Numbered from the stretch's first letter, positions 28,257-51,039 are shown. The stretch is DNA of 64,000 bases from Candidatus Adlerbacteria bacterium (GCA_029288895.1 JARIGK010000001.1:134682-198681); one strand, 5' to 3'. Numbers and translations: made by a program. The notes: generated by a model not told the origin, from the letters alone.

Positions 28257-30326
28257 TCACCCTTCGACCGAGGCGGCGGCTGTGGAGGAGAGTGCTTTTT
28301 TGAATGCCTTCTCTAATTCTTTGAGGCCCACGGGTTTGGTGAGATGATAGTGGAAACCTGCTTCGTGCGCTTTTTCTTTATCTTCTGTTTGGCCGTAGCC
28401 GGTAAGAGCGATAAGCGCTGCGTTTGTTGCGTTGTCTTGTTTCAAGCGGCGCACTACTTCGTAGCCGTCGATGTCGGGCAAGCCAATGTCGAGCACAAGG
28501 ATGTCATGGTCGGCCATACGTGCCGCTTCGAGCGCGGCCAACCCCGAGTAGGCCACGTGTACTTCATGACCGCGCAACTCAAGCAGCCTCTTCAGTGCAT
28601 GCGCTGCTGCCTCGTTGTCGTCAACAACTAAGATGCTGCGTTTATTGCGCACTGCACGCAAGGTACGATTTCCTGTGCCCGTGAGTATAGGTTTTTTTGC
28701 GGGCTTCTCGACGCGACCGCGGATAAGCGGCAGGCGCACGGTAAATTCCGACCCTTTTCCTTCGCCCTCGCTTTTCACTTCAATCGTGCCGCCGTGCATC
28801 TCGACCAGCTGGCGGGTGAGCGGTAGGCCGACGCCCAAGCCCTCTGTCGGTAATTTGCCGCGTTGCACCTGGAAGAAGGGTTCGAAGATGCGCTTTTGCA
28901 TCGTGCGCGAAATACCAATACCGTTATCGCGGAGCGTAAGCACAGCCATGTTTTTATCGTCGCGAAGCGAAAGTTCGATCGTGCCGCCAGGGTTTGTATA
29001 CTTCGCTGCATTGTTTAACAGATTGACGAGTATTTGTTCGACGCGGATAGGGTCAGCTTCCATATAGAGCGGCTCTTCTGGTTTGTGTACATGCAAACGG
29101 TGGCCGCGGCTTTGGAGAAGCGGTTTGGTCGACTCAACAGAGCGGTCGACGATATCTTCGACAAAGACCACTTCTTTGCGCAGCGCCAACTTATTGCGCG
29201 AGATGCGCGATATGTCGAGTACGTCATCGAGCATGCCGCGCATCGCGTTGACGTGCTGGCCGATGGTATTAACGAGTAAGGCCGACTCGCTGTGCTCGTG
29301 GCTTTCCAAGCGCAGGAGCTCTGCAGATGAGAGAATGGCTGCCAAAGGGTTCCGTAGTTCGTGCGCCAGCATCGCAAGGAAATTTTTCTTTGCTTCGTCT
29401 TCGGAGCTAATTTTACTGAGCGTTGTCTCAAGTTCTGTCACGTGGCGTGCGAGTTCTTGTTGTGCATGTTTGCGCTCTTCGACGATTGCCGTAAAGGTCA
29501 AAAATACCGTGCCCATCGTTGCGCTAAAGATCGCAAGCTGGAAGAGCGAGCCATTGGCAAAGGGGCCGTGGCCAAGCAATGTACCGCACAGCGCAACAAG
29601 CGCGGCAAGTGCAATAGAGAGACTCATGCCGCGCGGGCCCGTGCGCAGCGCCACCCACGTCAGCGGGATAAACACGTAGTAGGTAAAGTATGAGCTTTGC
29701 GGCAGCCAAAAAATAAACAGCGACGTGGCAAAGACGAGCAGGGTAAGCAGCGTAAGTTCGATGTATTGGCCGGCCGTACGCTCAAATCGCGGGCGAGAGA
29801 ACCACTTCAACAAGAGCGGTGCCAAAATAAGGATGCCCAATGCGTCGCCCGCCCACCACGCACCCCACATAGAGGGCAGCTCGGTGATGCGTCGTGCGCC
29901 GCTGGCCCACAGGCTTGCGATGCCAATGCTTGCACTCAAGAGCGGTGCAATAAACGCGGTTGCAATAATGCCGATGTTGTCACGCAGCCGAAGTAAAGAG
30001 GGTTGGAAGCCCACGTAGTAGTTTAAAAAATACGCGCCAGCGAGTGCCTCAAGTGCGTTACCTGCGCCTATCATCAGCGCGGCGAATATCGTTGCGCCGT
30101 CAGACAGGTTGACGAGTGCGGCGCCAATAAAGACTGCAGGCCAGAGCCGGTACCCCCACAGGAGAAGTGCTGCAAGTGCCACGGCGCTTGCCGGCCACAC
30201 AAACGTCGCGAAGGTGCCGACGGGTTCAATGCTTAATCCGAGACGCCCCGCCAGGAAGTAGACAAGTGTGAGAAGAATGTAGGGTTCGTATCGAAAGAAG
30301 AGGGTGATAAGGGCTCTTCTATTCAT
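28257..30326 (-). CDS. Hybrid sensor histidine kinase/response regulator (membrane sensor - HisKA - HATPase_c - REC)
   Basis: About 300 aa of multi-TM sensor domain (MASE1-like). H-box LAHELRNPL, the N/G1/G2 ATP-lid boxes, and a C-terminal receiver (LVVDDNEAAAH...DIGLPDIDG). Confidence 0.85.
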   Translation of the reverse strand: MNRRALITLFFRYEPYILLTLVYFLAGRLGLSIEPVGTFATFVWPASAVALAALLLWGYRLWPAVFIGAALVNLSDGATIFAALMIGAGNALEALAGAYFLNYYVGFQPSLLRLRDNIGIIATAFIAPLLSASIGIASLWASGARRITELPSMWGAWWAGDALGILILAPLLLKWFSRPRFERTAGQYIELTLLTLLVFATSLFIFWLPQSSYFTYYVFIPLTWVALRTGPRGMSLSIALAALVALCGTLLGHGPFANGSLFQLAIFSATMGTVFLTFTAIVEERKHAQQELARHVTELETTLSKISSEDEAKKNFLAMLAHELRNPLAAILSSAELLRLESHEHSESALLVNTIGQHVNAMRGMLDDVLDISRISRNKLALRKEVVFVEDIVDRSVESTKPLLQSRGHRLHVHKPEEPLYMEADPIRVEQILVNLLNNAAKYTNPGGTIELSLRDDKNMAVLTLRDNGIGISRTMQKRIFEPFFQVQRGKLPTEGLGVGLPLTRQLVEMHGGTIEVKSEGEGKGSEFTVRLPLIRGRVEKPAKKPILTGTGNRTLRAVRNKRSILVVDDNEAAAHALKRLLELRGHEVHVAYSGLAALEAARMADHDILVLDIGLPDIDGYEVVRRLKQDNATNAALIALTGYGQTEDKEKAHEAGFHYHLTKPVGLKELEKAFKKALSSTAAASVEG

Positions 30327-32492: not shown

Positions 32493-33189
32493 TCCGTAGT
32501 TGAAACTCATCTTCTGGGAGAGGAAATATATCCTTCCAAAAAGGGAGTGGGTTATGCCCTGCAGGGTCACGTTTCGATTCAGGCTCCCATTCGCCGAAGA
32601 CTTCAACAGCGTCATCGTTAATGTAGAGCCTTTCATTCCATCGTGCCGGCCGTGCTTCCCGGTTCAAGATAAAACGAGTCGTCATCGTCGCGCGCCACAT
32701 GCCCAAATAGACGCTAGACTCATGGCGGTTGCGTGGGTCGGCGAAATCTCGAATTTCAGGCGTGCTGATTTGCACCAGCTCACCTCGGGCTACTTTTACC
32801 CGGCCTTCGCCCCACATGCCGCGGATGGCAGTCGTCTCGGCTGTTTCGCCGTAGATGCCGGTCTCGCTTGTGGTGCGAATGACCGCGTCTTCTCCCTCTC
32901 GTGTAGTTGGAATGATTCTGCCGGCAACGATGCGATAGTGTTCGATGAGCTCCATTCCGGCAACGCGCAGCAACACTTCGGATTTTTTCGAACAGCACAC
33001 GCAATTGCCGTTATCGAGACGGGCGAACTCAATCTCCCGTTTTTGATTAATGGCCTTTGCCAAGTTCGCCAATTTGCGCGGACTACTTCGCTCAAACTCC
33101 TCGAGGTCAAAAGGCTTCCCGTCGAATGTTGTGCATCCAACCAGAAAGACTCGCAGATCTTTAATGGAATCGAATGTATAGAACTTCAC
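32473..33189 (-). CDS. Hypothetical protein (downstream of the second hybrid kinase)
   Basis: 238 aa, soluble, with CVCC and several conserved-looking Arg/Trp residues. Confidence 0.4.
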   Translation of the reverse strand: MKFYTFDSIKDLRVFLVGCTTFDGKPFDLEEFERSSPRKLANLAKAINQKREIEFARLDNGNCVCCSKKSEVLLRVAGMELIEHYRIVAGRIIPTTREGEDAVIRTTSETGIYGETAETTAIRGMWGEGRVKVARGELVQISTPEIRDFADPRNRHESSVYLGMWRATMTTRFILNREARPARWNERLYINDDAVEVFGEWEPESKRDPAGHNPLPFWKDIFPLPEDEFQLRSSGPRM

Positions 33190-33291
33190 TTGGGCCTCCT
33201 AAAACGTTGCGTAGTAGGATAACCCCCCGGACTCTGTACCCACACTATCGTTTTTTAAAGAAAAAGTGAAGCTCAGCAGTAGATGAAGGAT

Positions 33292-35352
33292 TTATCCTTG
33301 CACACGGCCCAGCGCCGTTTGAAGATCGCTGAGGCTAATAGGCTTAACGAGGTATTGGTCGAACCATTCGCGCGCATCCATGCGTCGCGAATCGCCCAGC
33401 CCATAGCCCGTCAGTGCGATAAGAGTGCCGCGATAGTTCTGGCCTCGCAGCATGCGCGCCACGTCGTAGCCGTCCTGGTCGGGGAGGCCGATATCCAAGA
33501 AGATGAGGTCGGGCGAAATGCTGCGTGCTTTGGCGAGACCCTGCGCACCATCGTAGGCGTACTGCACGCGTGCACCGTGGAGTTCGAGCAGGCGCCCAAT
33601 GCCGGCCGCCGCGGCATCATTGTCGTCGATAATAAGGACAAGCGGTTGTTTTGATTTGGGTTGGGACCCTGGCGTGCGGATATCCGTGGCGCGCGCCTCG
33701 CGTTTTGGAAGCATCGTGTTGCCCGAGCGCATCAGCGGTATAGTCACTACAAAGCGGCTGCCGAGCCCGGCGCCATCGCTGTATGCCTCGATGGTGCCGC
33801 CGTGGAGTTCGACGAAGTTGCGTACGAGTGTAAGCCCAATGCCGAGACCTTTTTTATTGCGCGCATCTTGCTCGACCTGGTGGAAGGGGAGGAAGATGGT
33901 CTCAAGTTCGTTCGGGCGAATACCAATGCCGCGGTCGGACACTTCGATGCTTGCATTGTGGCCCTCTTCGCGCATCGAAAGCGTAATTGTTGTACCCGAT
34001 GGCGAGTATTTCGACGCGTTCGTCAGCAAGTTGGAAAACACTTGCTCCAAACGCACTGCGTCGCCAAGCACATGGAGTTGCTGTTTTGGCATATTCAACA
34101 CCAAACGCTGATGCAATTCTTTGCGGTGATGTTCGGTCGAAAGCACAGCGCGTTTCAGTACGACATCGAGCGATACCTGTTCGCGCTTCAAATCGACTTT
34201 GCCTTCCGAAATGCGGGAGATGTCGAGGAGGTCGTCGAGCAGGCGGCGGATAGTGTCCATCCGGTTTTCCATCATGGTAAGCAATTCGGTATCTTCTGCG
34301 TCGCGGCCGCCTTTTAATTTCATCAAATCGATGGATGAAATAACAGGCGCCAGCGGGTTGCGCAATTCGTGCGACAAAATGGCAATAAAATCATTTTTTG
34401 CTTTCGACTCTGAACTTTCGCGCGCCACAGCGTTGCGAAGTGTTGCCAACTGCGAGTGCATGATGTTGGTGTTGACGCGGCGATCTTCTTCAAGCGAGGT
34501 GATGATAAAAAAGAGCAGCGTGAGCATGATCAGCAACAGTTCTGTCTGGAATAGGTAGTCGACAACTAGGGGGGCTGGCGAATACAGTGCAACGCTCGTA
34601 ATGGCAAAGCATGAGGTGAGTAGCAGTGCGAGCGTAATAAATCGCGGCCGCATTTTAAGTGCGATGTAGAAGAGGGGTGCCATCAAAAAATATACCGTCG
34701 GAATGCCGCCAAGCGTCCCCATTTGGCGGACAAACAGCAAGTAGTCGAGCCCAAGCAGCGCCACGAAGACAAGTACGAGCTCGACCATTTCGCCAGCGTT
34801 GCGCGAAAAGCGCGGCTTGGCCAACCAGCGCAGCAAGAACGGCGTCATGATAAGGAAGCAGAAGAGTGTCGCGACATAGGAATGCTCCCACGTAAGCCCT
34901 AAATCGGAGAGGCCGCGATATGCGCGCACCAAAAGTCCGAGCGTTGGCGAAATAAGAGAGATGCACACTGCTGTTGCCATAAAGAAGAACGTGTCGCGAT
35001 ACCGTCGGAAGAGCGGGTCGATGCGTGCCTCAAGCAAGAGCCATGCACCCGCCAACCCTTGCAACACTTCAAATATCGGCAAGAAAATAATTGAAAGGAG
35101 AGAGCCGCCTGTCGCGATGTTTGCGACAAGCGCCGAAAGGTAGACGACGGGCCATAGGCGCGTACCGGCGAAGTAGAGTGCGGCCAGTGCGATGCCCGAT
35201 GCCGGGTTAAAGCGGGCCATGGGTGGAAGCACGACGCGAGCAAGCGCAAAGACAGCAACATAGAACACAAACAGGGCTGCTGCCGCGCGCCATTCGCGGA
35301 TACTATAGACTCCCGCTAATGCCCGGAGGCGTTTATTCATTGCTTCTACCAT
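33292..35352 (-). CDS. Hybrid sensor histidine kinase/response regulator, paralog of 28257..30326
   Basis: Same architecture as the first hybrid HK: multi-TM sensor, H-box LSHELRNPL, HATPase_c, and a C-terminal REC (LVLIIDDNDAAA...DIGLPDQDG). Confidence 0.85.
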   Translation of the reverse strand: MVEAMNKRLRALAGVYSIREWRAAAALFVFYVAVFALARVVLPPMARFNPASGIALAALYFAGTRLWPVVYLSALVANIATGGSLLSIIFLPIFEVLQGLAGAWLLLEARIDPLFRRYRDTFFFMATAVCISLISPTLGLLVRAYRGLSDLGLTWEHSYVATLFCFLIMTPFLLRWLAKPRFSRNAGEMVELVLVFVALLGLDYLLFVRQMGTLGGIPTVYFLMAPLFYIALKMRPRFITLALLLTSCFAITSVALYSPAPLVVDYLFQTELLLIMLTLLFFIITSLEEDRRVNTNIMHSQLATLRNAVARESSESKAKNDFIAILSHELRNPLAPVISSIDLMKLKGGRDAEDTELLTMMENRMDTIRRLLDDLLDISRISEGKVDLKREQVSLDVVLKRAVLSTEHHRKELHQRLVLNMPKQQLHVLGDAVRLEQVFSNLLTNASKYSPSGTTITLSMREEGHNASIEVSDRGIGIRPNELETIFLPFHQVEQDARNKKGLGIGLTLVRNFVELHGGTIEAYSDGAGLGSRFVVTIPLMRSGNTMLPKREARATDIRTPGSQPKSKQPLVLIIDDNDAAAAGIGRLLELHGARVQYAYDGAQGLAKARSISPDLIFLDIGLPDQDGYDVARMLRGQNYRGTLIALTGYGLGDSRRMDAREWFDQYLVKPISLSDLQTALGRVQG

Positions 35353-35379
35353 AGCTCTATCGTAGAAAAATGCAAAAGA

Positions 35380-35410
35380 CTCGGGGTCGCACGATGTGCA
35401 ATACCCCGAG
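35380..35410 (-). terminator. Putative intrinsic terminator between the surface-protein genes and the hybrid kinase
   Basis: CTCGGGGT - 15 nt loop - ACCCCGAG, with TCTTTTGCATTTTTCT on the minus strand. Confidence 0.4.
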
Positions 35411-35431
35411 CCGTTTGCAGATTACCTGCTG

Positions 35432-35971
35432 TTATGCGGATGTTCGTTTGAGGAGATAGCCCGCGCTCCCAAGAACCGCTACCCCAGAAAGGATGAGCGA
35501 AATGATAGTGGGGAGTGGGTCACCGCCCTCGCCCGTGTTTGGGACCCCAGGAATGGCTGTGGTCGATGTGCCCAATACTACGCCGCCCGAGCCCGAGGAG
35601 CCGCCTGTGGTGCTTGGCGTATTGGTGATGATGCCACCACCACCGCCCCCGCCACCGCCGCCAGACGAGCTACTGCCGCCGCCTGAACTTGGTGAGCTAA
35701 CGACGCTGCCGCCAAGCGAGCCTCCAGGTGAGGATGTTACCGTGCCGCCAAGCGAGCCGCCCGATGACGTTGCGACGCTACCGCTAAGGCTGGAACCCGT
35801 CGTGCTTGCGCTTGGGGTGCTCGTTGTTGTTGTCGATGTCGTCGTCGTTGACGTGGACCCTCCCGCACTCAAGGTGCCGGTGATCTCGGAGGCGCTTGCG
35901 ACGCTCGCCATACTTCCTGCGATGAGCAGTGCGGAGAGAATTCGTGCTGTGCTCTTAGTCATGAGATGCAT
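35432..35971 (-). CDS. Secreted Ser/Thr/Gly-rich protein with a C-terminal sortase-type sorting signal (VPNTG + TM + KRTSA)
   Basis: Signal peptide. Low-complexity T/S/G tracts including G12. C-terminus is AIPGVPNTGEGGDPLPTIISLILSGVAVLGSAGYLLKRTSA. Confidence 0.5.
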   Translation of the reverse strand: MHLMTKSTARILSALLIAGSMASVASASEITGTLSAGGSTSTTTTSTTTTSTPSASTTGSSLSGSVATSSGGSLGGTVTSSPGGSLGGSVVSSPSSGGGSSSSGGGGGGGGGGIITNTPSTTGGSSGSGGVVLGTSTTAIPGVPNTGEGGDPLPTIISLILSGVAVLGSAGYLLKRTSA

Positions 35972-35995
35972 TGCGTTTACTTGCTAATACGATTG

Positions 35996-37105
35996 TTAGA
36001 ACGGAGTTGTGGTCGACATTGCGCCGAAGGTTGTCGTGTAGTTGCCAGTTGGCGTACCAGACGGTACTGCTGCCTGGATGTAGACATCGATCTGGCGTCC
36101 CGGCGTTGTCGACGAGGTGTCACCGACGAGCATCATGTTGCCGCTGTAGTCGTTATTTGCCTCAAGCATCGAGGACGCGGTGGTCGATGCGTTCGATGAC
36201 TGTGGAGACCAGATGCGGATGTGATTTGCTGTCGCAAAGGTTGTCGACGAATTTGCCGTGTTGATGAAGTCGCCGAACTTCATAGCGAAGTTGCTTTCGG
36301 TGTCCGGAACAACGAGGTGGAGTATCCACTCCCACCCATGCTCAAACGTTCCATCTGCTGTGGCGCTCGTCTGCACGCTGTCGACACCTGTCACTGCAAG
36401 TGGAGTAGTTGATGTTGATGTCGTTGTTGTGCTCGTGCTCGAAGATACTGGTTGCACGTAGTAGGAGTTTGATGCCATGAGGCCACTCGTGCGGCCAGTT
36501 GCCGTGATCGCTGCCGGGCCCACTGCAAGTGACGGCACTGTCATGCTCTGTGTAAAGTTGCCGCTTGCGTCAGCAGAAACGGTCGTTGTTGCGCCGCCGA
36601 ACATAATGTCGACTTGCTCGGACGAATTGAAGTTTGTACCGAGCGCGTTGAACATGGAACCTGGTTCGCCGCTGTAGGAGCTCAGCGCCAAGAACGCGGT
36701 TGATGTTGCAGCCGGCGTGTAGCTGAAGGTCAGCATGTTGGATGCCACGTTGCCCGTCGATGATGCGGTCGACGACGAAACATCAGCACCGACCATAACC
36801 GTCACTGTGCCCGACGCCGTTGGCATCACGTTGAAGGTAAACGTCGTGCCGCTGCCCGACACTGTGCCAACGGTGGCATTAGTTGCCGTGATGTTCGCAC
36901 TGGTGAGGCCGTTTACCGCTTGCGAGAACGTTGCAGTGACGGGGATAGTCGTCGCTGACGTACTCGAGGAGACGGTCGAAGAAAGAACTACCGTTGGGCC
37001 GCCCGAGGCTGCCGACGAGAGGGATGCCAAACCTCCAAGTACTGCAACCGCCGCTATCATGGCGACTGCCATGCTTGAAAGTATCCCGATAGATTTTGCT
37101 TTCAT
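35996..37105 (-). CDS. Secreted S/T-rich surface protein (Ig-like repeats), hypothetical
   Basis: Signal peptide (MKAKSIGILSSMAVAMIAAVAVLGG); 369 aa rich in S/T/A/N. No C-terminal sorting signal. Confidence 0.45.
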   Translation of the reverse strand: MKAKSIGILSSMAVAMIAAVAVLGGLASLSSAASGGPTVVLSSTVSSSTSATTIPVTATFSQAVNGLTSANITATNATVGTVSGSGTTFTFNVMPTASGTVTVMVGADVSSSTASSTGNVASNMLTFSYTPAATSTAFLALSSYSGEPGSMFNALGTNFNSSEQVDIMFGGATTTVSADASGNFTQSMTVPSLAVGPAAITATGRTSGLMASNSYYVQPVSSSTSTTTTSTSTTPLAVTGVDSVQTSATADGTFEHGWEWILHLVVPDTESNFAMKFGDFINTANSSTTFATANHIRIWSPQSSNASTTASSMLEANNDYSGNMMLVGDTSSTTPGRQIDVYIQAAVPSGTPTGNYTTTFGAMSTTTPF

Positions 37106-37167
37106 ATAGTAATACCTAATACCTAGTTAATAAGTTTCGAACGAGGCTTCAGTAAAACAGGCGAGTA

Positions 37168-37205
37168 GTGAACGCTCGGTGAAAAGCCGCGTGAAGCACT
37201 TCACG
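37168..37205. promoter_or_regulatory. Direct-repeat array (GTGAA x3 at 11-12 bp spacing) ending in the 16-bp palindrome CGTGAAGCACTTCACG
   Basis: Lies in the divergent intergenic region between the surface-protein gene (start 37105) and the sortase gene (start 37238). Confidence 0.35.
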
Positions 37206-37237
37206 ATTGCTTTATAAAAAACCCGCACACTAGGTAT

Positions 37238-37840
37238 GTGTCAGCACGAATACCATATGGTGCAGCGATAGCCGTCATTGTTGTGGCGGCGTTCGTGTTT
37301 GTTTTTGTGTTGTGGCATGCAGTGTGGGGCGGCGGGGAGGAGAGCGATATCGTCCCGGCGAATATGCCTGCAGCGGTCCTTGCTGCGACAACCTCGATGC
37401 CTGCGCGTTTAGAAATACCCGTGCTGCATGTTGATGCGCGCGTGCAATACGTCGGTGTGACATCAAAAGGCACCATGGGTGTGCCGAGCAACTTTACCGA
37501 TGTTGCGTGGTACAAGTACGGCGCGGTGCCGGGGCAGGCGGGCAGCGCTGTCATGGACGGTCATGTTGATAACGCGCTGTCGTTGCCAGGGGTGTTTAAA
37601 CATTTGGCCGATATCCATGTCGGCGATGATCTCTATGTTCAAACGAATGATGGCAGCACACTGCACTTCCGTGTGTACGATGTCGAGACGTACCCGTACG
37701 ACCAGGTGCCGATGCAAACCGTGTTTGCACAAACGCGCGATGCGCACCTCACGCTTATCACGTGCGGCGGTACCTGGGTGCAAAGCAAAAAAACGTACGA
37801 CCATCGCGTGGTGGTGTACTCGGCATTGGTGGGGAGTTAA
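37238..37840 (+). CDS. Sortase (class E/F-like transpeptidase)
   Basis: N-terminal TM anchor, LEIPVLHVDARV, catalytic His (MDGHVDN), TLxTC (LTLITCGG), and Arg (RVVVYSAL). GTG start. Confidence 0.8.
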   Translation: MSARIPYGAAIAVIVVAAFVFVFVLWHAVWGGGEESDIVPANMPAAVLAATTSMPARLEIPVLHVDARVQYVGVTSKGTMGVPSNFTDVAWYKYGAVPGQAGSAVMDGHVDNALSLPGVFKHLADIHVGDDLYVQTNDGSTLHFRVYDVETYPYDQVPMQTVFAQTRDAHLTLITCGGTWVQSKKTYDHRVVVYSALVGS

Positions 37841-38376
37841 CGGCGCGCGAGCGAGGATTGTTGCGTACCAAAAAATTCGACGATGATGGTTGTTTGTTTG
37901 CCTTGGTAGATTCCGCGTGCGATGCCGATACCCATATCTTTGTACTTCGCGTTGATGATATTTGCGCGGTGCGTTGGCGAATTCATCCATGCCATTTCGA
38001 CACTCGCGGCGTCAGAAAAATCCATCGCTAAATTTTCTGCGGCATAGAGGTATGTGTAGCCATTTTGTATAAACCATTTCCATGGCGCCTGGCCCTCGGG
38101 GGATGTGTGCGAGAAATACTGGCGGGCGAGCATATCGTCGGCGCGTTTTTGTGCAGCCTGGTCGAGCAGCGCATTATCTTTCACGGCGCCGATGTGCTGC
38201 GAAGCACGGTCAGTATTGGTGAGTGTAATAATTTGGCTGGCGAGCGCTGTGTCTAGAGGAGGCCGTGTTTGTACCTGCGCAAGTACAGGGATTGGCCCTG
38301 CAGTAAAAAATGCGAGAGCGAAAAGAAAGGTCGAGAAAGAGGAGAGTGTGCGCGAATACATGAGAGTACTCATCAA
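37837..38376 (-). CDS. CAP/SCP/PR-1-like secreted protein
   Basis: Signal peptide. NTDRASQHIGAVKDNALLDQAAQKRADDMLARQYFSHTSPEG...HRANIINAKYKDMGIGIARG is the typical CAP-domain pattern. Confidence 0.7.
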   Translation of the reverse strand: MMSTLMYSRTLSSFSTFLFALAFFTAGPIPVLAQVQTRPPLDTALASQIITLTNTDRASQHIGAVKDNALLDQAAQKRADDMLARQYFSHTSPEGQAPWKWFIQNGYTYLYAAENLAMDFSDAASVEMAWMNSPTHRANIINAKYKDMGIGIARGIYQGKQTTIIVEFFGTQQSSLARR

Positions 38377-38439
38377 TTGTAGATGAGTTCATACTCAATT
38401 CATATTCACATCGATGAAGAGGTCAGCTAGATGAAGAGC

Positions 38440-38967
38440 CTAGCGAAAGATTTTTTTCGAGAGCCACACAAAAGCAGCGCCAGTAAGAATGCCAAGTACT
38501 ATGCCGCCGAGGATATCAGACGGGTAGTGCACACCTGCGGCAACGCGCGCGGCACCGATAAGGAGGCCTGTTGCCATGAGCGCCCACCCAAACTTTTTAT
38601 TGAAGTGAAGAATGACCGTTGCGAGCGCGAACATAAATATGGTGTGGCCCGATGGAAAGGAATACGCCGAGTCCGCCACCAGATGGGGGATGTTGAGTGC
38701 AGAAAATGGACGTGCGCGGTGCCAGAAGTGGCGTATGAGGGATGCAATGCCGTAGCGTGCAACGAGCGCTGCCACAAGTGCAAGGCAATAGCCCATGACA
38801 TGTTCGCGTTCGCCTTTCTTCCACGCGAGTGCGAATGCTGCCACTACGCCAAGCAGCACAGCGTAGATGAGATATTCGGCGCAGACGATGATCGCCGTAT
38901 CAAGAAGCGCGCTCTGTCCTGCGAGGTTGTGGAGTGCGTAGAAGAGTGAGAGGTCGAGTTGCTGCAT
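38440..38967 (-). CDS. PAP2-family phosphatase (undecaprenyl-diphosphatase-like)
   Basis: KX6RP (HRARPF), PSGH, and SRX5HX3D-like (GVHYPSD) motifs; 4-5 TM helices. Confidence 0.75.
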   Translation of the reverse strand: MQQLDLSLFYALHNLAGQSALLDTAIIVCAEYLIYAVLLGVVAAFALAWKKGEREHVMGYCLALVAALVARYGIASLIRHFWHRARPFSALNIPHLVADSAYSFPSGHTIFMFALATVILHFNKKFGWALMATGLLIGAARVAAGVHYPSDILGGIVLGILTGAAFVWLSKKIFR

Positions 38968-38973
38968 ATGTCG

Positions 38974-39369
38974 TTAGTGGAAGTACCCGAGGATCGCGGC
39001 ACCCGCGATAATCGTGATGAGGCTGCTGAAGATGCCAAGCCAGAATACGGTCATTTTGCCGCCCCAGAGTGCGTCACCCAATTTCATCGGGGCGATAAAG
39101 CCAACCCATGCCCAGACACCAATAGCAATGGCATTGAGAGGCGAGAGGCCTTGCGTTGCGCGCGCAAGCACATAGAACATCACCAAGCTTGCGATAAATT
39201 GCCAGATGTAGCTTGTGGCCATAGCCTTCTGCATCTGTTTTTTTTCTGCGGTACTCTTGTTTTCCCAACCCATGGCGCGAATATAGACTTTGCCAAAGAG
39301 CGGGCCGTACCAGAGAGCGCCTATAACCATGGAAGCGACCGCAGCCGCCAGAATCGCGATGTAGTTCAT
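38974..39369 (-). CDS. DUF1761-family membrane protein
   Basis: ALWYGPLFGK N-terminal signature; 131 aa with four TM helices. Confidence 0.5.
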   Translation of the reverse strand: MNYIAILAAAVASMVIGALWYGPLFGKVYIRAMGWENKSTAEKKQMQKAMATSYIWQFIASLVMFYVLARATQGLSPLNAIAIGVWAWVGFIAPMKLGDALWGGKMTVFWLGIFSSLITIIAGAAILGYFH

Positions 39370-39373
39370 ATAG

Positions 39374-39856
39374 TTATGCTAGCACGGGGCTGCACGAATT
39401 GCAGAGGCAGCCTTTTGGCTTGATAAATTCGTCAAAATACTCGGTATCGTAGTCGTAGGTGAGCTCCTCGCCGGGCTTAATAGTTCGCTTTGCGAAGATA
39501 AAGACGCGTTTGTTTTTAATGTCGATTTCGCAGTTGGGTTTGCAGGCATGGTTCACATACTTGGCGATGTTGCCCGGCACGTTGCCATCGATCATCGAGT
39601 GTTTGCCCGTCTCGAAAAAGTACTTGCCACTTTTGTTGTGCTGCTCCCAGTCGTTGAGTGCGCGGCCAGTGTATTCGAGTATGCAGGCACCTTTCGGGAT
39701 TTTTTCTTCAGCAAATACGCCCTTTCCGGTGCGTGATTTTCCAACGCGCACCTTAAAATCCCCCGGCGTAAATCTCTTCGGTAATTTTTTCATCCAAACA
39801 GTATACATCTTAAGTAAATCTTCATAATTCGACTGATACCCTTCTTTATACATCAA
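39374..39856 (-). CDS. SET-domain protein lysine methyltransferase
   Basis: GKGVFA...IPKGACILEYTG...NHACKPNC...IFAKRTIKPGEELTYDY, plus a post-SET CLCNSC. Confidence 0.8.
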   Translation of the reverse strand: MMYKEGYQSNYEDLLKMYTVWMKKLPKRFTPGDFKVRVGKSRTGKGVFAEEKIPKGACILEYTGRALNDWEQHNKSGKYFFETGKHSMIDGNVPGNIAKYVNHACKPNCEIDIKNKRVFIFAKRTIKPGEELTYDYDTEYFDEFIKPKGCLCNSCSPVLA

Positions 39857-40767: not shown

Positions 40768-40862
40768 GACGGCCTTTTTCTTTGCATATACAAGAGAAAA
40801 GCGTAGGATGGCACACAGACGCGGTTACGCCGCCCGTTCTTACTCTTGTGGAGGACTATGCA

Positions 40863-41831
40863 ATGATCGTTCGTCTACTCGCTCTTGTGTGCGCGCTACT
40901 CGTTCCAGGGTTCGCGAATGCAGAGGTCTATCCGGCCAAGCCTGTGCGGCTTATCGTCGGCTTTCCGCCCGGAGGGCCAACTGATGTGCTTGCGCGAATC
41001 GTCGCCGAGAGTCTTTCGGCGAAGTTGGGTGTGCAGGTGCTTGTCGAGAACAAGCCCGGCGCTGGCACCATCCTTGCAATCAAAGAGGTGATTGCAGCGG
41101 CGCCCGACGGCTACACACTTTTGTTTGGCAGCCCGAACGTTGCCACCAACGAAACACTCTATCCAAATCGCGGGTACGAATTTCTGCAGAGTACTGAGCC
41201 TGTTGCGCTCGTTGCCCGAGGGCCAGTCGCATTGTATGTAAAGCGCGGCACTCCTGATGAGGATCGTTTCCAGACGTTGGATAGTCTTATCGGGTTCGCA
41301 AAGGCACATCCGTGGAGGCTCAACATGGCATCTCCGGGCAACGGCACAGCGAGCCATCTCATCGGCGAACTCTTCCAAATGCGGGCGGGCGTCACCATGA
41401 CGCACGTTCCGTACAAAGGCGGCAGCCAGGTGATGCCAGACTTGCTCGCAGGGAGGGTTAGCCTGACCTTTGATACGACGACGTTGGCGCTCCAGTATGT
41501 CCGTGATGGGCGTTTGCGCGCGCTTGGGGTTACAACCAAGCAACGCGTCAGCGTCTTGCCGGACACGCCCGCCATTGCCGAGGTCCTTCCTGGGTTCGAG
41601 GCAAGTAACTGGTGGGGCATTAGCGCGCCAAAAGGAACTCCAGCGTCGGTTGTCGCGCGGCTTAACAGTGCGATCAACAGTGTGCTCGGCGAACAGGAAA
41701 TGCAGAAGAAGCTCACTGAGTTGGGGCTTATCCCCGCGGGAGGCACGCCGTCTGAGTACGGCACCTTCATTGCGGCGGAGACGCTCAAGTGGGCGGACGT
41801 CATCCGCTACTCTGGAGCTACGCTCGATTAA
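40863..41831 (+). CDS. TctC/Bug-family tripartite tricarboxylate transporter substrate-binding protein (orphan)
   Basis: SD site GGAGGA upstream of the ATG at 40863. Signal peptide, PVRLIVGFPPGGPTDVLARIVAE, and the periplasmic binding fold. No tctA/tctB nearby. GC-rich codon usage. Confidence 0.7.
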   Translation: MIVRLLALVCALLVPGFANAEVYPAKPVRLIVGFPPGGPTDVLARIVAESLSAKLGVQVLVENKPGAGTILAIKEVIAAAPDGYTLLFGSPNVATNETLYPNRGYEFLQSTEPVALVARGPVALYVKRGTPDEDRFQTLDSLIGFAKAHPWRLNMASPGNGTASHLIGELFQMRAGVTMTHVPYKGGSQVMPDLLAGRVSLTFDTTTLALQYVRDGRLRALGVTTKQRVSVLPDTPAIAEVLPGFEASNWWGISAPKGTPASVVARLNSAINSVLGEQEMQKKLTELGLIPAGGTPSEYGTFIAAETLKWADVIRYSGATLD

Positions 41832-41987: not shown

Positions 41988-42359
41988 CTAGTGTAAACGA
42001 AACTGATGCTGTACAAATTTTAGCTCGGCTGGTCGGATCAACCGCGAATGCGCCACACTCACTTTGTGGAGTTTGCCATCCAAATTCTTCTCCCAGAATT
42101 CCAAAAACCCAGTAAGTTTTGGAAAGCGAGGATGAAGATCCGTGTCCTGCCAAACATAACTCTGCAGAATATGTTTATGGTCGGGCATCCAGTAGAGAAT
42201 TTCTGCTGTTGTAATTCCGAAGCCCTTAAACAGTTCTACGAAATCTTTTGAGACAGATGCAGGCATCGTATGTCCCTCGCTCGTTGCTCCCGCTATAAGT
42301 AAAGCGCCGAACCTGTTCATCGTCAAAACGATCCTGTGAACTGTGTGGCCCGTGTTCAT
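41988..42359 (-). CDS. Usg-like family protein (tentative)
   Basis: ITTAEILYWMPDHKHILQSYVWQDTDLHPRFPKLTGFLEFW...LHKVSVAHSRLI resembles the Usg-like domain. Start may be the internal ATG at 42266. Confidence 0.4.
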   Translation of the reverse strand: MNTGHTVHRIVLTMNRFGALLIAGATSEGHTMPASVSKDFVELFKGFGITTAEILYWMPDHKHILQSYVWQDTDLHPRFPKLTGFLEFWEKNLDGKLHKVSVAHSRLIRPAELKFVQHQFRLH

Positions 42360-42397
42360 GACAACGAATGGTTTAGTAGAGCCCTGTCGTGGTGATA

Positions 42398-42430
42398 AAA
42401 AGAGCCCTACAAAGTAGGGCTCTTTTACTC
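42398..42430 (-). terminator. Intrinsic terminator
   Basis: AAAAAGAGCCCTAC AAAG TAGGGCTCTTTTACTC. Confidence 0.6.
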
Positions 42431-42446
42431 TGCAGTAGTAATAGAA

Positions 42447-42710
42447 TTAATTACCTTGGCAGTTGGTGTGCGAGTTGTTGTAGCCAGTTGCGCCAGCGTC
42501 TTGGCCAGTTGCGCCGCCGTGATATCCAGGCGTTCCGCCAGCTTGGCCGAGGAAGCCGAAATTCCCGTTAACGTCAGCGAAGGCGCCATGTGATGCTCCG
42601 CATGCAGATGCGTTTGAACCATCACCTGCGGCAAATGCAGGCATTACTGCCGCTCCGAACAAAAGTGCGCTTGCGCCCGCGCCCAACACTGCTTTCTTGA
42701 AGGTACCCAT
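42447..42710 (-). CDS. Small secreted Gly-rich protein, hypothetical
   Basis: Signal peptide (MGTFKKAVLGAGASALLFGAAVMPAFA) followed by a Gly/Ala/Asn-rich 60-aa region. Confidence 0.45.
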   Translation of the reverse strand: MGTFKKAVLGAGASALLFGAAVMPAFAAGDGSNASACGASHGAFADVNGNFGFLGQAGGTPGYHGGATGQDAGATGYNNSHTNCQGN

Positions 42711-42808
42711 AGATTGCTTAAGAAGTTAACGAATATTTTCCCAGTATACGTACCCTTCATTAATAACGTATGAAATAGAGGAGGTTGAACCTGCCTGCAT
42801 AAAAGAGA

Positions 42809-42843
42809 AATCGCCCACACGGAGCAGATTTCCGTTGGGCGAT
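42809..42843 (-). terminator. Intrinsic terminator
   Basis: ATCGCCCA(C)ACGGA GCAGATT TCCGTTGGGCGAT with a T-rich tract on the minus strand. Confidence 0.55.
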
Positions 42844-42854
42844 TGTGCAACCGA

Positions 42855-43127
42855 TTAGGTGCGCCGGATAGGCTTGATGGTCACCCCCAAGCTTTGCAGG
42901 TGCTCAACCACACCTGCATCCTTGAGGATGCGGGCGTATGCGCCAGTGATGAAGTTGATCTTCGGCTGGTGTTGGACAAGGCCACCTTTCTCCTGCAGGA
43001 CTTCGTCCAGCTCCTCGGCAAGCTTTGTAGCTGTAGCCGCCAGCTGGATCAGCTCAGTGCGCATTCCCTCCGCTTTGCCGCGGATCGAGCGTTGCATCGG
43101 ATTAGTACCGTCGTTTCGACCGTTCAC
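42855..43127 (-). CDS. Small hypothetical protein (90 aa) with a consensus promoter, SD site and terminator
   Basis: GTG start preceded by AAGGAGA 8 nt upstream. Coiled-coil-like. Confidence 0.45.
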   Translation of the reverse strand: MNGRNDGTNPMQRSIRGKAEGMRTELIQLAATATKLAEELDEVLQEKGGLVQHQPKINFITGAYARILKDAGVVEHLQSLGVTIKPIRRT

Positions 43128-43158
43128 GTAAGGTATCTCCTTAATGTTCTTACCTATA

Positions 43159-43187
43159 TATTGTAACCTAATATAAAATATTTGTCA
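43159..43187 (-). promoter_or_regulatory. Near-consensus sigma-70 promoter
   Basis: On the minus strand: TTGACA (43187-43182), 17-nt spacer, TACAAT (43164-43159). Confidence 0.5.
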
Positions 43188-43277
43188 AATTTGCCCACCT
43201 TAGTGGACGACTTTAGAACCATTGATTGGGTGAGAGAGTACCCTGCGCCTGCATTCACGCTGCGACAGGTGCAGGAG

Positions 43278-45065
43278 TTACTGAGGTAGTGTCTCCGTTG
43301 TATCGACGCTTTCTACTACAGCTGGAATTGGTTCAGGCAATTGGACACCATGCATCTTAACGCGTCGCGCATTCAATCGATTTTCTTGGCCAATTTGTAC
43401 TAAAGCTTTTGCAGCTCTCTCAGCAATGGTTTCCGTGTCATCTGCAGTCCTGTTGTTCAGACCACGAGCAGCACGAACAATGCGATGCATTCTATCGCCC
43501 TTTTCAGCCTTAAATATTCTGTAAAAATCTTCGACACTGAGCTTGCTTATTAATTCAGTATCTTCTGGATTCCAGCCATGTTTAATAATCATATCTTCTA
43601 ACACGTCAGCTGGGTTGCGGTCATCAACAAATCTGCTACGCGCTGCATCGAATGCCTGCGCAAGTTCCTCATCTCTTTCTCCATCGTCAAATAGACTTTG
43701 ACGTCCATCGAACAAATCTTTCTCGTCCCTGCGTTCTGTAACGTATTTGGTTATAAGCTCCGTTGCTTCCGTGTTTCTTCCAAACTCTTTGAGCAGCTTA
43801 ACTGTTGAGTTTAGATTGGAAGGGTGAAGGACTCCAATATTTTCCATCGACGCACTAAAAATTTTGTCCATCACTTCTTTTTCGTTATCGTCAAAAGAGC
43901 CGTGGTATGCAGTCCAAGCATCGTGTATATCCTGCTCTTGTTGGGCTTTGTTGGCCACCTTACTTTGCTTCTCAGCTGCCTTTAGGAGAGCTTCTTCATC
44001 AAAGATTCCACTCTGCACGGTCTTATGGATAGCCAAGTCAAAGTCATCAGCACTAAAAAATTTATACTTTGCCATCAACTCAGACCACTTCCTGTCCGTG
44101 TCTGGAATTTGGTTATTATTTCGCAACATACCATGCAGGCGCCCCATATCTGTTAAGAACTCGAATGGCGGCGGTTCGCCGTCCTTCTGATATTTTTCCC
44201 AACCGAATAGCGTTGCCGAGTGAAAGGCTTGGTAGAAAAGCTCTGAATAATCAGTTTGTAATATCCCTTCGAGTCGCGCGCAAATTCTCTCTATCTTTTT
44301 GAGTACTCTGATGTTGGTGATACCAAGAGTGACGCAAAAATCATGCAGCAGTTTTTTGTTACCCGTTGCATCTGCGTCAGGGAAAGCAATGTCCGCTGCT
44401 TCTTGAGGAGTCGGATCAAATTGCAGATGGGTATCAACGACCTTTTCAAGTTGTTTATGGAAAACTTCCTTTTGTCCATCCGCAATTTCTTCTTCGTTGA
44501 GCAAGAGAACAACTTTACACTTGCGTTGTTCTTTTAGCATGGATATAAGTCCGAATACTTCTATGACGTCCAATCCGTTCCCAGCTCTTTCAAGGTCGTC
44601 TATGCATATGATTTGTTCGCCCACAGAGTGAAAGAGAAGTTTTTCAGCTAGTGCAGTTCCGATGTAACTTTGGACTACGGGATTCTGACCCGCCTGCGTT
44701 AACAGCCACCGCACGGAAGAGCCGAGCGTGTCTCGTAAATTTTTCGGCTCCAAAGCTCCTAGTGTCCACTCCTCTCCGATTTTTTCAACGGGTTTTGTAG
44801 CTTCATAGATTGCGTAGCGCAAGTCGTCAATTTTCTTTACTCCAAATAACGATACATATGCGTAGCGCGTTAACTTAATCTTCCCAGCATCTTTTGCTTC
44901 TTTAAGAAAATAGTTCCAACCGTATGTTTTGCCAACGCCCCATTTGCCGCTAATACAAAGCACTTCAGGGTCGGCTCTTTCCAAAAAACGAGTTATTTCT
45001 GCTTTTACAAGTCGTATAGACACGCCCCTATTGTAGCGATAAAAGCTCATGTGAAAAGAGCTCAA
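43278..45065 (-). CDS. KAP-family P-loop NTPase (PifA-like)
   Basis: Walker A ISGKWGVGKT, KAP-type Walker B ICIDDLER, and a long alpha-helical C-terminal half; 595 aa. Confidence 0.8.
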   Translation of the reverse strand: MSSFHMSFYRYNRGVSIRLVKAEITRFLERADPEVLCISGKWGVGKTYGWNYFLKEAKDAGKIKLTRYAYVSLFGVKKIDDLRYAIYEATKPVEKIGEEWTLGALEPKNLRDTLGSSVRWLLTQAGQNPVVQSYIGTALAEKLLFHSVGEQIICIDDLERAGNGLDVIEVFGLISMLKEQRKCKVVLLLNEEEIADGQKEVFHKQLEKVVDTHLQFDPTPQEAADIAFPDADATGNKKLLHDFCVTLGITNIRVLKKIERICARLEGILQTDYSELFYQAFHSATLFGWEKYQKDGEPPPFEFLTDMGRLHGMLRNNNQIPDTDRKWSELMAKYKFFSADDFDLAIHKTVQSGIFDEEALLKAAEKQSKVANKAQQEQDIHDAWTAYHGSFDDNEKEVMDKIFSASMENIGVLHPSNLNSTVKLLKEFGRNTEATELITKYVTERRDEKDLFDGRQSLFDDGERDEELAQAFDAARSRFVDDRNPADVLEDMIIKHGWNPEDTELISKLSVEDFYRIFKAEKGDRMHRIVRAARGLNNRTADDTETIAERAAKALVQIGQENRLNARRVKMHGVQLPEPIPAVVESVDTTETLPQ

Positions 45066-45279
45066 ATGAGAAGAGTTCTTCAGAACAGCGCCGAGTGCTT
45101 CTGCAACACCTGTTCTTGAATCTCACATTGAAGGACAAACAGACGACCTACACGCTGAAAAGCCCATCGAGATACTTTCGATGAGGGTTCAAGAGAAGCT
45201 CGACGCCCAGAAAAACTTCGAACTCCAAAAAACGCCTAAAAGTAAGGCTCGTCTAGAATCTGTTTCGAAAATCGACCCT

Positions 45280-45322
45280 TTGCTCCGCGCGATAGAGGAT
45301 GTTCGAACCTGTATTGCGGTAA
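45280..45322. repeat. Direct repeat A (att-like): TTGCTCCGCG + GATAGAGGATGTTCGAACCTGT...
   Basis: The first 10 nt (45280-45289) match the tRNA-Asn 3' end and flank (53311-53320). Copy A aligns with copy B at about 79% identity. Confidence 0.5.
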
Positions 45323-45371
45323 CTATCTGACTCAAGTAAAGTGGCAGACGGCAGTTTTGAAGGAGACGACA

Positions 45372-45659
45372 ATGACCGTGTGGTTCCCGCGTTACTGGTG
45401 TATGGGGTGCGGAGCACGCTTCGTGTTGGAAGCCGATGCTCTTGAGACCAACCTGACTCCTGAAATCATCCTCTCAGCAATGAGTGCAGGGGAGGGTCCT
45501 TTCAAGCAGCTCAGGACGCATCATGACTGCGGCTTGCATAAAGCGCAAGAAGCAGGGAAGGCGTTGGGAGCTGGTGGGCCCGGGCTCTACTCTTCCAACT
45601 TCGAGCCTTATTGGGGCGAAGCGAAGTTCTGCGGTATGAAGAAGAAAGTTCCAACCTGA
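45372..45659 (+). CDS. Small CxxC protein, hypothetical
   Basis: SD site GGAGA upstream of the ATG at 45372. Begins MTVWFPRYWCMGCGARF. A terminator follows. Confidence 0.4.
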   Translation: MTVWFPRYWCMGCGARFVLEADALETNLTPEIILSAMSAGEGPFKQLRTHHDCGLHKAQEAGKALGAGGPGLYSSNFEPYWGEAKFCGMKKKVPT

Positions 45660-45688
45660 TGACATCCTGCGTTACGAATTTTAGAGGC

Positions 45689-45722
45689 CGCTATCCGCAA
45701 GGAGCGGCCTTTTCTTTTTTGT
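45689..45722 (+). terminator. Intrinsic terminator
   Basis: AGGCCGCT ATCCGCAAGG AGCGGCCT followed by TTTCTTTTTT. Confidence 0.5.
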
Positions 45723-45791
45723 CTAATTATAAAAGTTTTGATGTCCAATTGGGGTATCTAAAATACCCTTGCAAAATAATCTCCAAAAAAT

Positions 45792-45832
45792 GGCTCCGCC
45801 TGATAGAGGACGTTCGAACGTGTTTAAGGTAA
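45792..45832. repeat. Direct repeat B (att-like): GGCTCCGCCTGATAGAGGACGTTCGAACGTGT...
   Basis: About 79% identical to repeat A. Contains the perfect palindrome ACGTTCGAACGT. Confidence 0.5.
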
Positions 45833-45850
45833 AAACCTCCACTTTATGTT

Positions 45851-46645
45851 TCAGACATTTTTTGATAGATAATCTTTCATGACTGCTTTAGCGGCAAAGT
45901 CAAAAGCCGAAGCTGTTATAGGAAGCTTTGCGGCTGCTTTCGCAATATTTTTCCAATCCTCAGGCAGTTCTCCATTCCCAAGTTCTTCTTGGTAAGCAAG
46001 TAGCTGAACGACAAAATCATAATGGCCAGTACTCAAGGTCATGGCAAGCATTAATGCTTTGTGAATTTCTAGCTTCGGACCATAATTGAAATGATATTTA
46101 TTTCCTTTACCGCGGTATCCGTAAAGCTGTGAACCAAATGCGCTTGCGTGAGAACTTTTGCTCAATATTCTAAATGCCTTTTTGGCAGGTTTTCCTCCGT
46201 GAGCAACAATATCTCTTTCAATCGTTCCCTCACTGAAAGCATCCTTAAAAGCTGGATTTTTCTGATAATCATCCTCTGTTTCTTTGAGAAACAAATCACG
46301 AAGTTCTGGATGTGAAAAAAGATATATCAGCATTGATAAATCACTCATTATGCTTCTTACGATCACAAACGCATCTCCGTACAACCCTCTTTCCATAAGT
46401 ATCCTTATCGTTTCAAGATGTTGAATAGACCTGTTCACCAACATAAGTTGGATCGTTTTGAATTTCGCTTCTTCGGTGCCCGGAGTCTCTTTTACTTCAT
46501 TAATCAGTAATGCGACTGCATCTTTCAGAACCCCTAGACCTTCCCAATAAATGGGATAAAGCAGACTGAGAGTCATTTTTGTGCTCTCTTTAATTTCTAG
46601 TTCCAGCGTTTCAAAGTCTCGTCTTCCTTCCACTGGTTTAGACAT
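45851..46645 (-). CDS. Hypothetical protein (third gene of the LexA-like / Y-family-polymerase operon)
   Basis: 264 aa, alpha-helical. Ends 32 bp downstream of the polymerase gene. Confidence 0.4.
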   Translation of the reverse strand: MSKPVEGRRDFETLELEIKESTKMTLSLLYPIYWEGLGVLKDAVALLINEVKETPGTEEAKFKTIQLMLVNRSIQHLETIRILMERGLYGDAFVIVRSIMSDLSMLIYLFSHPELRDLFLKETEDDYQKNPAFKDAFSEGTIERDIVAHGGKPAKKAFRILSKSSHASAFGSQLYGYRGKGNKYHFNYGPKLEIHKALMLAMTLSTGHYDFVVQLLAYQEELGNGELPEDWKNIAKAAAKLPITASAFDFAAKAVMKDYLSKNV

Positions 46646-46677
46646 ATTTATGTAGATCCTAGCATGTTTAAGAGCGA

Positions 46678-47982: not shown

Positions 47983-47983
47983 A

Positions 47984-48544: not shown

Positions 48545-48601
48545 CCCCTCAGTATATTAGTACGTTCGTACTAGTGTCAAACTCAGCTTATCTTAGCGTT
48601 T

Positions 48602-49606: not shown

Positions 49607-49680
49607 GTTCTCTTCACAAAAGTACAGGGACTCAAGTGAATACTCGAAATCATCCTTTTATTGGGCTATATTAACGACAA

Positions 49681-50592: not shown

Positions 50593-50637
50593 TTATTGTT
50601 GTCGCCATAGAGGGTTCGCTGGGAATATAGTTTTCCC

Positions 50638-50898: not shown

Positions 50899-51039
50899 CC
50901 TGGAAAAACTAGAGGAATTTATAGCTCTATATCGCCAGGAATATGGATTGGATCTAACTCCGGCTGAAGCTCTGGAGCAGGCAATTCCTTTAATTTTACT
51001 CGTGCAAATTGTTAAGAATTGATAAGTTCCGAATGAAAA

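Follow-up and report, generated by a model that had tools for sequence, protein, structure and literature searches.

A sortase gene and its neighbor on the Adlerbacteria chromosome

We analyzed a 64,000-nucleotide stretch of DNA from Candidatus Adlerbacteria bacterium (GCA_029288895.1, JARIGK010000001.1:134682-198681), referred to below as the window, with attention to a locus at positions 35,432 to 38,376 that holds a sortase gene and the gene for a secreted protein ending in a VPNTG sorting signal. The substrate gene shares its strand with the gene for a second secreted protein, of 369 residues; the sortase gene is divergent from both and is followed by genes for a CAP-family protein and a PAP2-family phosphatase. 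Read directly, all the open reading frames (ORFs) occupy the positions that an initial annotation of the window had given them.

The sortase gene (37238..37840, + strand) encodes 200 residues, of which 58-197 match the Pfam Sortase family (PF04203) with 81.3 bits, the gathering score being 26.6. The catalytic residues His109 (37562-37564, in DGH109VDN), Cys176 (37763-37765, in LTLITC176) and Arg190 (37805-37807, in YDHR190), all encoded on the + strand, are invariant in an alignment of 31 sortase relatives. The AlphaFold2 model of the enzyme, with a predicted local distance difference test (pLDDT) score of 87.2, consists of a membrane helix near the N-terminus (residues ~7-30), a disordered linker and a catalytic beta-barrel that runs from residue 55 to the C-terminus. 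Neither a lid segment nor a C-terminal membrane helix is present in the model, and the chain stops 10 residues past Arg190. A Foldseek comparison of the model with the PDB gave 112 matches at E<=0.001, the best 50 of the 112 all being sortases; the top structures are class C, A, D and E sortases with template-modeling (TM) scores of ~0.55-0.6 at 15-24% identity. The PDB sequence search with the sortase returned no close solved structure, the best match (E=3e-5, ~26 bits) being to class C and D sortases. The Pfam score, the His-Cys-Arg triad with its TLxTC motif and the beta-barrel fold are those of the sortase superfamily. Sequence and model thus confirm the enzyme as a genuine member, in agreement with the initial annotation of a membrane-anchored sortase with LTLITC, His and Arg, and its transpeptidase activity is predicted. 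NCBI protein P0001 is the same sortase at 100% identity. Named relatives at 50-66% identity come from Candidatus Paceibacterota, Kaiserbacteria and the Parcubacteria group, and these lineages recur among the named genome loci fetched around the relatives. A sortase profile run over the 64-kb window found this single sortase.

The substrate and its sorting signal

The substrate gene (35432..35971, - strand), seen by direct reading and by a tail profile, encodes a precursor of 179 residues. Residues 1-27 form the signal peptide (MHLMTKSTARILSALLIAGSMASVASA, followed by SEITG, with the processing site ASA/SEITG). The mature chain, from there to the Thr of VPNTG, has 119 residues, 76% of them Ser, Thr or Gly (S32/T25/G33); a single residue is charged, and Lys is absent. 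The C-terminus (...AIPGVPNTGEGGDPLPTIISLILSGVAVLGSAGYLLKRTSA) has the tripartite architecture of a sorting signal: the VPNTG pentapeptide (35531-35545, - strand, by direct reading), 24 mostly hydrophobic residues and the basic end KRTSA (...TAIPGVPNTGEGGDPLPTIISLILSGVAVLGSAGYLLKRTSA). As outlined by the 63-locus alignment described below, the extended signal is P-G-V-P-N-T-G-E-G-G-D-P with the hydrophobic helix and KRTSA, at 35435..35551 on the - strand; in peptide form the signal is TTAIPGVPNTGEGGDP. From known sortase chemistry the scissile bond is predicted to be Thr146-Gly147, within the stretch ...TAIPGVPNTGEGGD....

When all ORFs of the window were scanned for a sorting-signal tail (C-terminal signal, helix and K/R, a check proposed with the initial annotation), this one protein was found. 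A leave-one-out profile, built from 51 tails of other loci, finds the substrate ORF at E=1.2e-13 among 957 ORFs, with the runner-up at E~1. Considering that it is the sole such tail in the window and is recovered at this level by a profile from other loci, it is not a chance pattern, and the complete sorting signal ascribed to the secreted neighbor is borne out. The general anchor models PF00746 and TIGR01167 do not match the window substrate even at E<=10. The PF00746 threshold is reached or approached solely by relatives whose pentapeptide begins with Leu, and an LPNTG relative alone passes it (23.3 bits vs 20). Signals of the exosortase/archaeosortase type were also considered. The relatives stay below threshold for PGF-CTERM (12.6 vs 24.5 bits) and GVDTG_CTERM (18 vs 29 bits) and the conserved neighbor is a sortase, so the signal falls outside that type.

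Substrate orthologues sharing the N-terminus ASA/SE(I/V)TGTL occur at related loci (labeled L with a number) L002, L080/L081 and L082. Those of L002, L080 and L081 contain a CHB_HEX_C-type domain; the window copy is the low-complexity chain alone. The Gly/Ser-rich substrate gene also yields a long Pro-rich antisense ORF, at 35493-35987 (+) in the window. At L082, where the two ORFs are 7028-7315 (-) and 6603-7448 (+), the public gene call took the antisense ORF and overlooked the substrate (...NLPNTGAGGEAAQ...). Given such antisense calls, substrates of this kind are likely under-annotated. Since anchor models miss the substrates and an antisense gene call has replaced one in at least one case, the surface proteomes of Parcubacteria are under-called.

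A sorting signal shared across the sortase clade

Seventy-nine loci around the sortase relatives, drawn from species-representative genomes, were scanned together with the window (80 loci in all) for ORFs whose C-terminus consists of xPx[T/S/A]G, then a hydrophobic stretch and then K/R. Two motif matches, a 596-residue cytoplasmic protein with VPDSG in L013 and L019, were dropped. With false positives removed, a signal-peptide protein carrying the same extended signal adjoins the sortase gene in 63 of the 80 loci. Its gene lies directly upstream on the same strand in 59 of these 63, where a median of 168 bp separates it from the beginning of the sortase match; the opposite strand carries it in the window, L002, L005 and L027.

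The consensus reads T-P-G-[V/T/A/L]-P-N-T-G-A-G-G-[N/D]-A, followed by a helix and R/K, with 30-41 residues past the pentapeptide. We aligned the 63 signals and numbered the pentapeptide 0 to +4. Pro at +1 and Gly at +4 are present in all 63, Thr at +3 in 60 and Asn at +2 in 49. Position 0 is variable (V22, T16, A13, L8, I2). Ahead of the pentapeptide stand Pro at -2 (56/63) and Gly at -1 (53/63), preceded by a Thr-rich stretch from -7 to -3 (18-37 Thr per position). Beyond it, Gly is found at +6 in 61 and at +7 in 57, flanked by Ala at +5 (37/63), Asn or Asp at +8 (N25, D15), Ala at +9 (44/63) and Asn at +12 (40/63). The closest relatives keep the gene pairing in orthologous proteins with IPNTG (L002) or VPDTG (L080/L081) replacing VPNTG. 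When the sortases were clustered roughly, near relatives differed at position 1 of their signals, with V, A, L and I replacing one another, and those with TPNTG formed a coherent subgroup whose substrates are very small.

Because 63 of 80 loci share the signal, VPNTG follows a clade rule and is one spelling of xPNTG. The initial annotation had seen in it an unusual recognition motif resembling the pilin-type VPxTG and QVPTG signals; the signal is no peculiarity of this locus, V, T, A, L or I filling position 1 throughout the clade, and the link to pilin signals is not supported. As predicted from these sequences, PG-x-PNTG-AGG is the normal signal of a large Parcubacteria sortase clade, degenerate at position 1 and fixed in PNTG and its flanks. 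Sortases are reported in more than half of the genomes of the Candidate Phyla Radiation (CPR), with no substrate rule stated (PMC6744442), and in the literature on sortases of Parcubacteria, Patescibacteria and the CPR we found no description of a PNTG-type signal. A profile search for the clade returned 2721 cluster representatives (50% identity) at E<=1e-30, and the clade is therefore large. The 63 loci give a testable rule for this clade of thousands, a sortase beside one PG-x-PNTG-AGG substrate. A sortase accepting Thr, Ala or Val as the first residue yet reading the extended flanks could serve as an orthogonal ligation enzyme.

Two variations were seen among the loci. Ala stands in place of the scissile Thr (LPNAG, MPNAG, VPAAG) at L005 9199-9693 (-), L021 7143-7931 (+) and L062 2649-2981 (+), in signals otherwise typical of the clade. 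A sortase subgroup at L001, L003, L004 and L051 has no adjacent substrate. A zinc-metalloprotease-like gene (HExGHALGLEH) lies upstream of the sortase at L001, L004 and L051, and one common conserved gene lies downstream of it at L001, L003 and L051.

Composition and size of the substrates

The 63 substrates comprise 4907 mature residues, counted from signal peptide to motif, with 18% Thr, 15% Gly, 12% Ser, 6.7% Asn and 4.9% Tyr. Charged residues are rare (Lys 0.2%, Arg 0.9%, Glu 0.9%, Asp 1.7%); the other proteins of the window contain 5.8% Lys. Two-Cys beta-domain repeats are found in the substrates of L014, L045, L050 and L064, those of L069 and L079 are rich in Tyr, Asn and Gly, and some others are pure Ser/Thr/Gly chains like that of the window. 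Tiny sortase-adjacent substrates occur at L016, L033, L036, L039, L067 and L068. One example of a tiny substrate, MNIKKFVNSVALTVLLLAGSAAA/QTTTPDTPNT/GSGG..., would leave ~10 residues on the envelope. A database search with the tail profile gave at least 33 proteins of 61-94 residues (P0121-P0153), all unannotated; candidates were picked by shared exact words, and the number is not a census. Judged from their sequences, precursors of 61-94 residues would leave an anchored Thr/Pro-rich peptide of 10-30 residues starting with Gln. Many sortases of the clade are paired with substrates too small to be the usual 'displayed proteins'.

The class of the sortase

Among the NCBIfam sortase classes, class F (NF033748) gives the window sortase its best score by far, 143.2 bits, which does not reach the curated cut-off of 166; classes E, D, GN and C score 33.5, 32.1, 29.2 and 21.9 bits. 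Class F ranks first for all 31 relatives with a margin of more than 100 bits, and the window's class F score is exceeded by none of them. By these scores the sortase is nearest class F, yet fails the curated membership score; we therefore call it class-F-like. Class C was considered and rejected: its model gives 21.9 bits vs a cut-off of 160, the lid and the C-terminal helix are missing from the predicted structure, and the pilin-motif Lys expected of class C substrates has no counterpart in the window's mature substrate (no Lys) or in the 63 substrates together (0.2%).

The prototype of class F is SrtF of Cutibacterium (Propionibacterium) acnes (Di Girolamo et al. 2019, as cited in PMC8225981 and PMC13251363). 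The window sortase shares with this class a single-domain build with an N-terminal membrane anchor and no lid, and some of its close relatives carry the NCBI name 'class F sortase'. It differs in having Arg190, whereas actinobacterial class F enzymes are reported to have Asn in place of the catalytic Arg (PMC8703055). The signals of the presumed substrates are also different: they are xPNTG between PG and GG flanks, not LPXTG, and just 8 of 63 begin the pentapeptide with Leu. In addition, the enzyme lies beside one dedicated substrate gene, unlike a general housekeeping sortase. What class F-type sortases do in the cell is still an unanswered question according to PMC13251363, and the pairing found in this clade bears on it.

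Class E offers a second comparison. There, too, a variant pentapeptide (LAXTG) is used lineage-wide and substrates can be small or disordered, as with the Streptomyces chaplins (PMC8225981) and Actinoplanes SspA, a putative intrinsically disordered wall-anchored protein (PMC13293333). However, LAXTG varies at position 2 and the present clade at positions 1 and 3, the window sortase scores just 33.5 bits with the class E model, and the substrates here are polar uncharged Thr/Ser/Gly chains, whereas chaplins are hydrophobic.

The 369-residue secreted protein

Directly upstream of the substrate gene, across a 24-bp gap, lies the gene for the 369-residue protein (35996..37105, - strand). This protein has a signal peptide and, as the initial annotation stated and direct reading bears out, no sorting signal and thus no anchor of its own. 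The same annotation described two secreted low-complexity proteins; secretion holds for both, whereas the 369-residue protein is not merely of low complexity. A Big_12 Ig-like domain scores 29.7 bits in it, above the cut-off of 27, and there is a further, weak match to the PGS Ig-like domain. Residues 235-369 form a conserved C-terminal domain whose family has just five database clusters and no Pfam model. Its predicted structure (pLDDT 46.1, from 6 sequences) is too poor for a fold comparison, and a PDB sequence search with it gave chance-level matches alone. In six loci (the window, L002, L005, L050, L080/L081 and L082) a gene of this kind lies directly upstream of one for a Ser/Gly-rich substrate. 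In place of the single mature Lys of the protein (AMKFGDF), L005 has Leu and P0158 has Arg. This protein and the substrate are not halves of one split gene, as both begin with a signal peptide and no homologue was found to fuse them. At L081 the 369-residue-like gene is one ORF of 457 residues (1454-2827), and at L080 it is two ORFs of 288 and 147 residues (1889-3263). The two assemblies have an identical sortase, and the split is a frameshift or strain variation.

Neighboring genes

Neighbors were counted over 83 loci. The gene for the CAP/YkwD-family secreted protein (37837..38376, - strand; Pfam CAP 60.3 bits) is convergent with the sortase gene and overlaps its end by 4 bp; against the YkwD family the protein scores 100.8 bits, under the cut-off of 171. 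Next to it lies the gene for a PAP2-family membrane phosphatase (38440..38967, - strand; Pfam PAP2 78.2 bits), which has weak matches to undecaprenyl-diphosphatase equivalogs (60 bits, far under the cut-offs). Both neighbors had been named in the initial annotation and both recur, CAP near the sortase in 7 of 83 loci, repeatedly in the closest relatives, and PAP2 within 700 bp of it in 11 of 83. Overlooked at that stage was the adjacent gene for a hybrid histidine kinase with the Pfam domains MASE1, HisKA, HATPase and REC (33292..35352, - strand), which lies 79 bp past the end of the substrate gene and is read in the same direction. Full-length MASE1 hybrid kinases lie within 2.5 kb of the sortase in 11 of 83 loci. 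Full-length kinase homologues abut the sortase at L023, L029, L034, L047, L054, L056, L058 and L068 and are near it at L002 and L038; at L080 a MASE1 gene occupies the same place as the kinase of the window. A second, paralogous MASE1-HisKA-HATPase-REC kinase is encoded at 28257-30326, 3 kb from the first.

These genes occur in two arrangements. In the window the MASE1 kinase, substrate and 369-residue-like genes are followed by the divergent sortase and then, on the opposite strand to it, by CAP, PAP2, DUF1761 and SET. This block is preserved from MASE1 to SET at L080/L081, and at L002 minus PAP2. The second order, found at L029, L047, L054, L056 and L058, is PAP2, substrate, sortase and a convergent kinase. 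With the same genes in two orders, it follows that they stay together. A functional link of PAP2, kinase and CAP to the sortase is suggestive but weak, the association being seen in ~13% of loci with partly shared ancestry, and the MASE1 kinase is a possible regulatory partner. The DUF1761 membrane protein (38974-39369) and the SET-domain protein (a putative methyltransferase domain; 39374-39856) adjoin the sortase block also at L002, L080 and L081, and SET homologues lie near the sortase at L058, L066 and L068.

Proposed action of the sortase-substrate pair and alternatives

In our judgment the locus is probably a dedicated sortase-substrate pair by which the substrate chain is fixed covalently to the cell envelope. 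The 179-residue precursor would be exported via Sec, with its signal peptide cut off at ASA/SEITG, and would be kept in the membrane by its C-terminal helix and KRTSA tail. The membrane-anchored class-F-like sortase would then read the extended signal P-G-V-P-N-T-G-E-G-G, and Cys176 would attack the Thr-Gly bond to form a thioester (acyl-enzyme), to be resolved by an envelope amine, most probably that of the peptidoglycan precursor lipid II. Some ~119 uncharged, Lys-free Ser/Thr/Gly residues would end up linked to the wall, probably extended and possibly glycosylated, and the G-E-G-G... helix peptide would remain in the membrane. This scheme is built on the observed parts, the sortase fold, the triad, the signal, and the conservation and gene linkage of that signal. 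From established sortase chemistry we infer the cleavage between Thr and Gly, the acceptor, the glycosylation and the role of the anchored chain. The initial annotation had spoken of a self-contained system, and one enzyme with one substrate in 64 kb, a pairing repeated in 63 of 80 loci, agrees with that. What is new is the clade-wide signal; the window locus itself is an ordinary member that works like a housekeeping or dedicated cell-wall sortase.

Several points weigh against this reading. No adjacent substrate is present in 17 of the 80 loci, and the pairing is therefore not universal. None of the 31 relatives reaches the class F cut-off of 166 bits, the window sortase with its 143 bits being likewise below it, and the sole characterized class F enzyme is reported in PMC8225981 to use LPXTG. 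The case for every member of the clade is made from sequences and models. The CPR envelope is described as poorly understood and of unresolved architecture (PMC5220378), which bears on an acceptor proposed by analogy, and further substrates or sortases may lie beyond the 64-kb window.

The initial annotation had offered, besides cell-surface display, a pilus-like system, in which the sortase would polymerize the VPNTG protein, perhaps together with the 369-residue protein, as class C sortases do with pilins. Residues other than Leu at position 1 are indeed typical of pilin signals, aliphatic ones among them (IPQTG, VPPTG, QVPTG), and the IPNTG signal of Bacillus cereus BcpB is cleaved by its pilus sortase (PMC8225981). 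As in pilin systems, enzyme and substrate genes are adjacent, two secreted proteins adjoin the sortase, and class C structures are among the top Foldseek matches, though level with classes A, D and E. However, the mature substrate has no Lys and therefore no pilin-motif nucleophile, Lys amounts to 0.2% over the 63 substrates compared to 5.8% in the other proteins of the window, and the sole mature Lys of the 369-residue protein, which has no sorting signal, is not conserved. The class C model gives a small fraction of its cut-off (21.9 vs 160 bits), and the sortase model has neither the lid nor the C-terminal membrane helix. Nor does the locus have Cna-type pilin domains; the window holds one sortase, with no housekeeping partner there, and many cognate precursors, at 61-94 residues, are too short for a pilin fold. 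Contradicted by every feature testable here, the pilus reading fails, and we hold it to be highly improbable.

A different role is conceivable for the portion of the signal left behind in the membrane, and it would be compatible with wall anchoring: the retained C-peptide (G-A/E-G-G-N/D-A... and helix), or its processing, would be what matters functionally and could be sensed by the adjacent MASE1 kinase in an envelope-monitoring circuit, with the PAP2 phosphatase coupling the module to the lipid II cycle. The membrane-retained part of the signal is as conserved as the cleavage site in the 63-locus alignment, extending past the cut through G+6 (61/63), G+7 (57/63), N/D+8, A+9 and N+12 (40/63), although recognition by the sortase explains this conservation on the P' side equally well. 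Many substrates would leave merely 10-30 anchored residues, and MASE1 hybrid kinases (beside sortase or substrate) and PAP2 are each found in 11 of 83 loci, with sortase, substrate, PAP2 and kinase genes together in two gene orders. There is a precedent in Streptococcus gordonii, where, as PMC11326707 reports with reference to Hall et al. 2019, the SGO_1180 two-component system senses an LPXTG remnant peptide of SrtA substrates; here, likewise, a substrate remnant and a membrane histidine kinase could form a circuit. Unlike that system as reported, the present one is known from genes alone, its kinase is of another family, and the adjacency holds in ~13% of loci with partly shared ancestry. 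A second paralogous MASE1 kinase lies 3 kb off, so the family is simply common here, and no response-regulator output gene was identified. We regard such a circuit as unlikely. In a fuller version, which we also doubt, displaying proteins would not be the main task of the clade sortase: it would graft short, possibly glycosylated peptides onto the wall or lipid II, with the C-peptide reporting this flux to the kinase; the Ser/Thr/Gly substrate of the window would then be an expanded version of such a peptide. The chain might also be joined to something other than peptidoglycan, be it the 369-residue protein, an S-layer or pilin protein, or a lipid. The architecture of the CPR envelope, described as unresolved (PMC5220378), leaves room for this, the pair of 369-residue-like and Ser/Gly-rich substrate genes is conserved in six loci, and the 369-residue protein brings no anchor with it. 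However, most of the 63 substrates are without such a partner, and the 369-residue family shows neither a conserved Lys nor an N-terminal Gly that could act as nucleophile. To our knowledge lipid II is the acceptor for every characterized non-pilus sortase, which also counts against this ligation, and we consider it distinctly unlikely.

Other features of the window

The locus is set among ordinary chromosomal genes, with rpoC, dnaG, rpoD, hisS and ribonucleotide reductase among those flanking it in the window. Together with the named sortase relatives, these genes mark the window as part of a chromosome from the Parcubacteria (CPR/Patescibacteria). A scan of 33000-39500 for promoters and terminators gave sites not above the level of shuffled sequence. 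At 40782-41831 a binding protein of the TctC/Bug family of tripartite tricarboxylate transporters is encoded (219 bits), unexpected for a small CPR genome. Farther on, positions 42000-53400 form an island of low G+C content (0.42-0.48 vs 0.51-0.56 elsewhere in the window), with genes for a KAP NTPase (43278-45065), a DUF5677 protein (45851-46645) and a UmuC/UmuD pair (46678-47982 and 47984-48544). Its serine recombinase is present as two overlapping ORFs (51738-52574 and 52534-53352), and the island, which looks like an integrated mobile element, ends at a tRNA-Asn gene (53313-53385).

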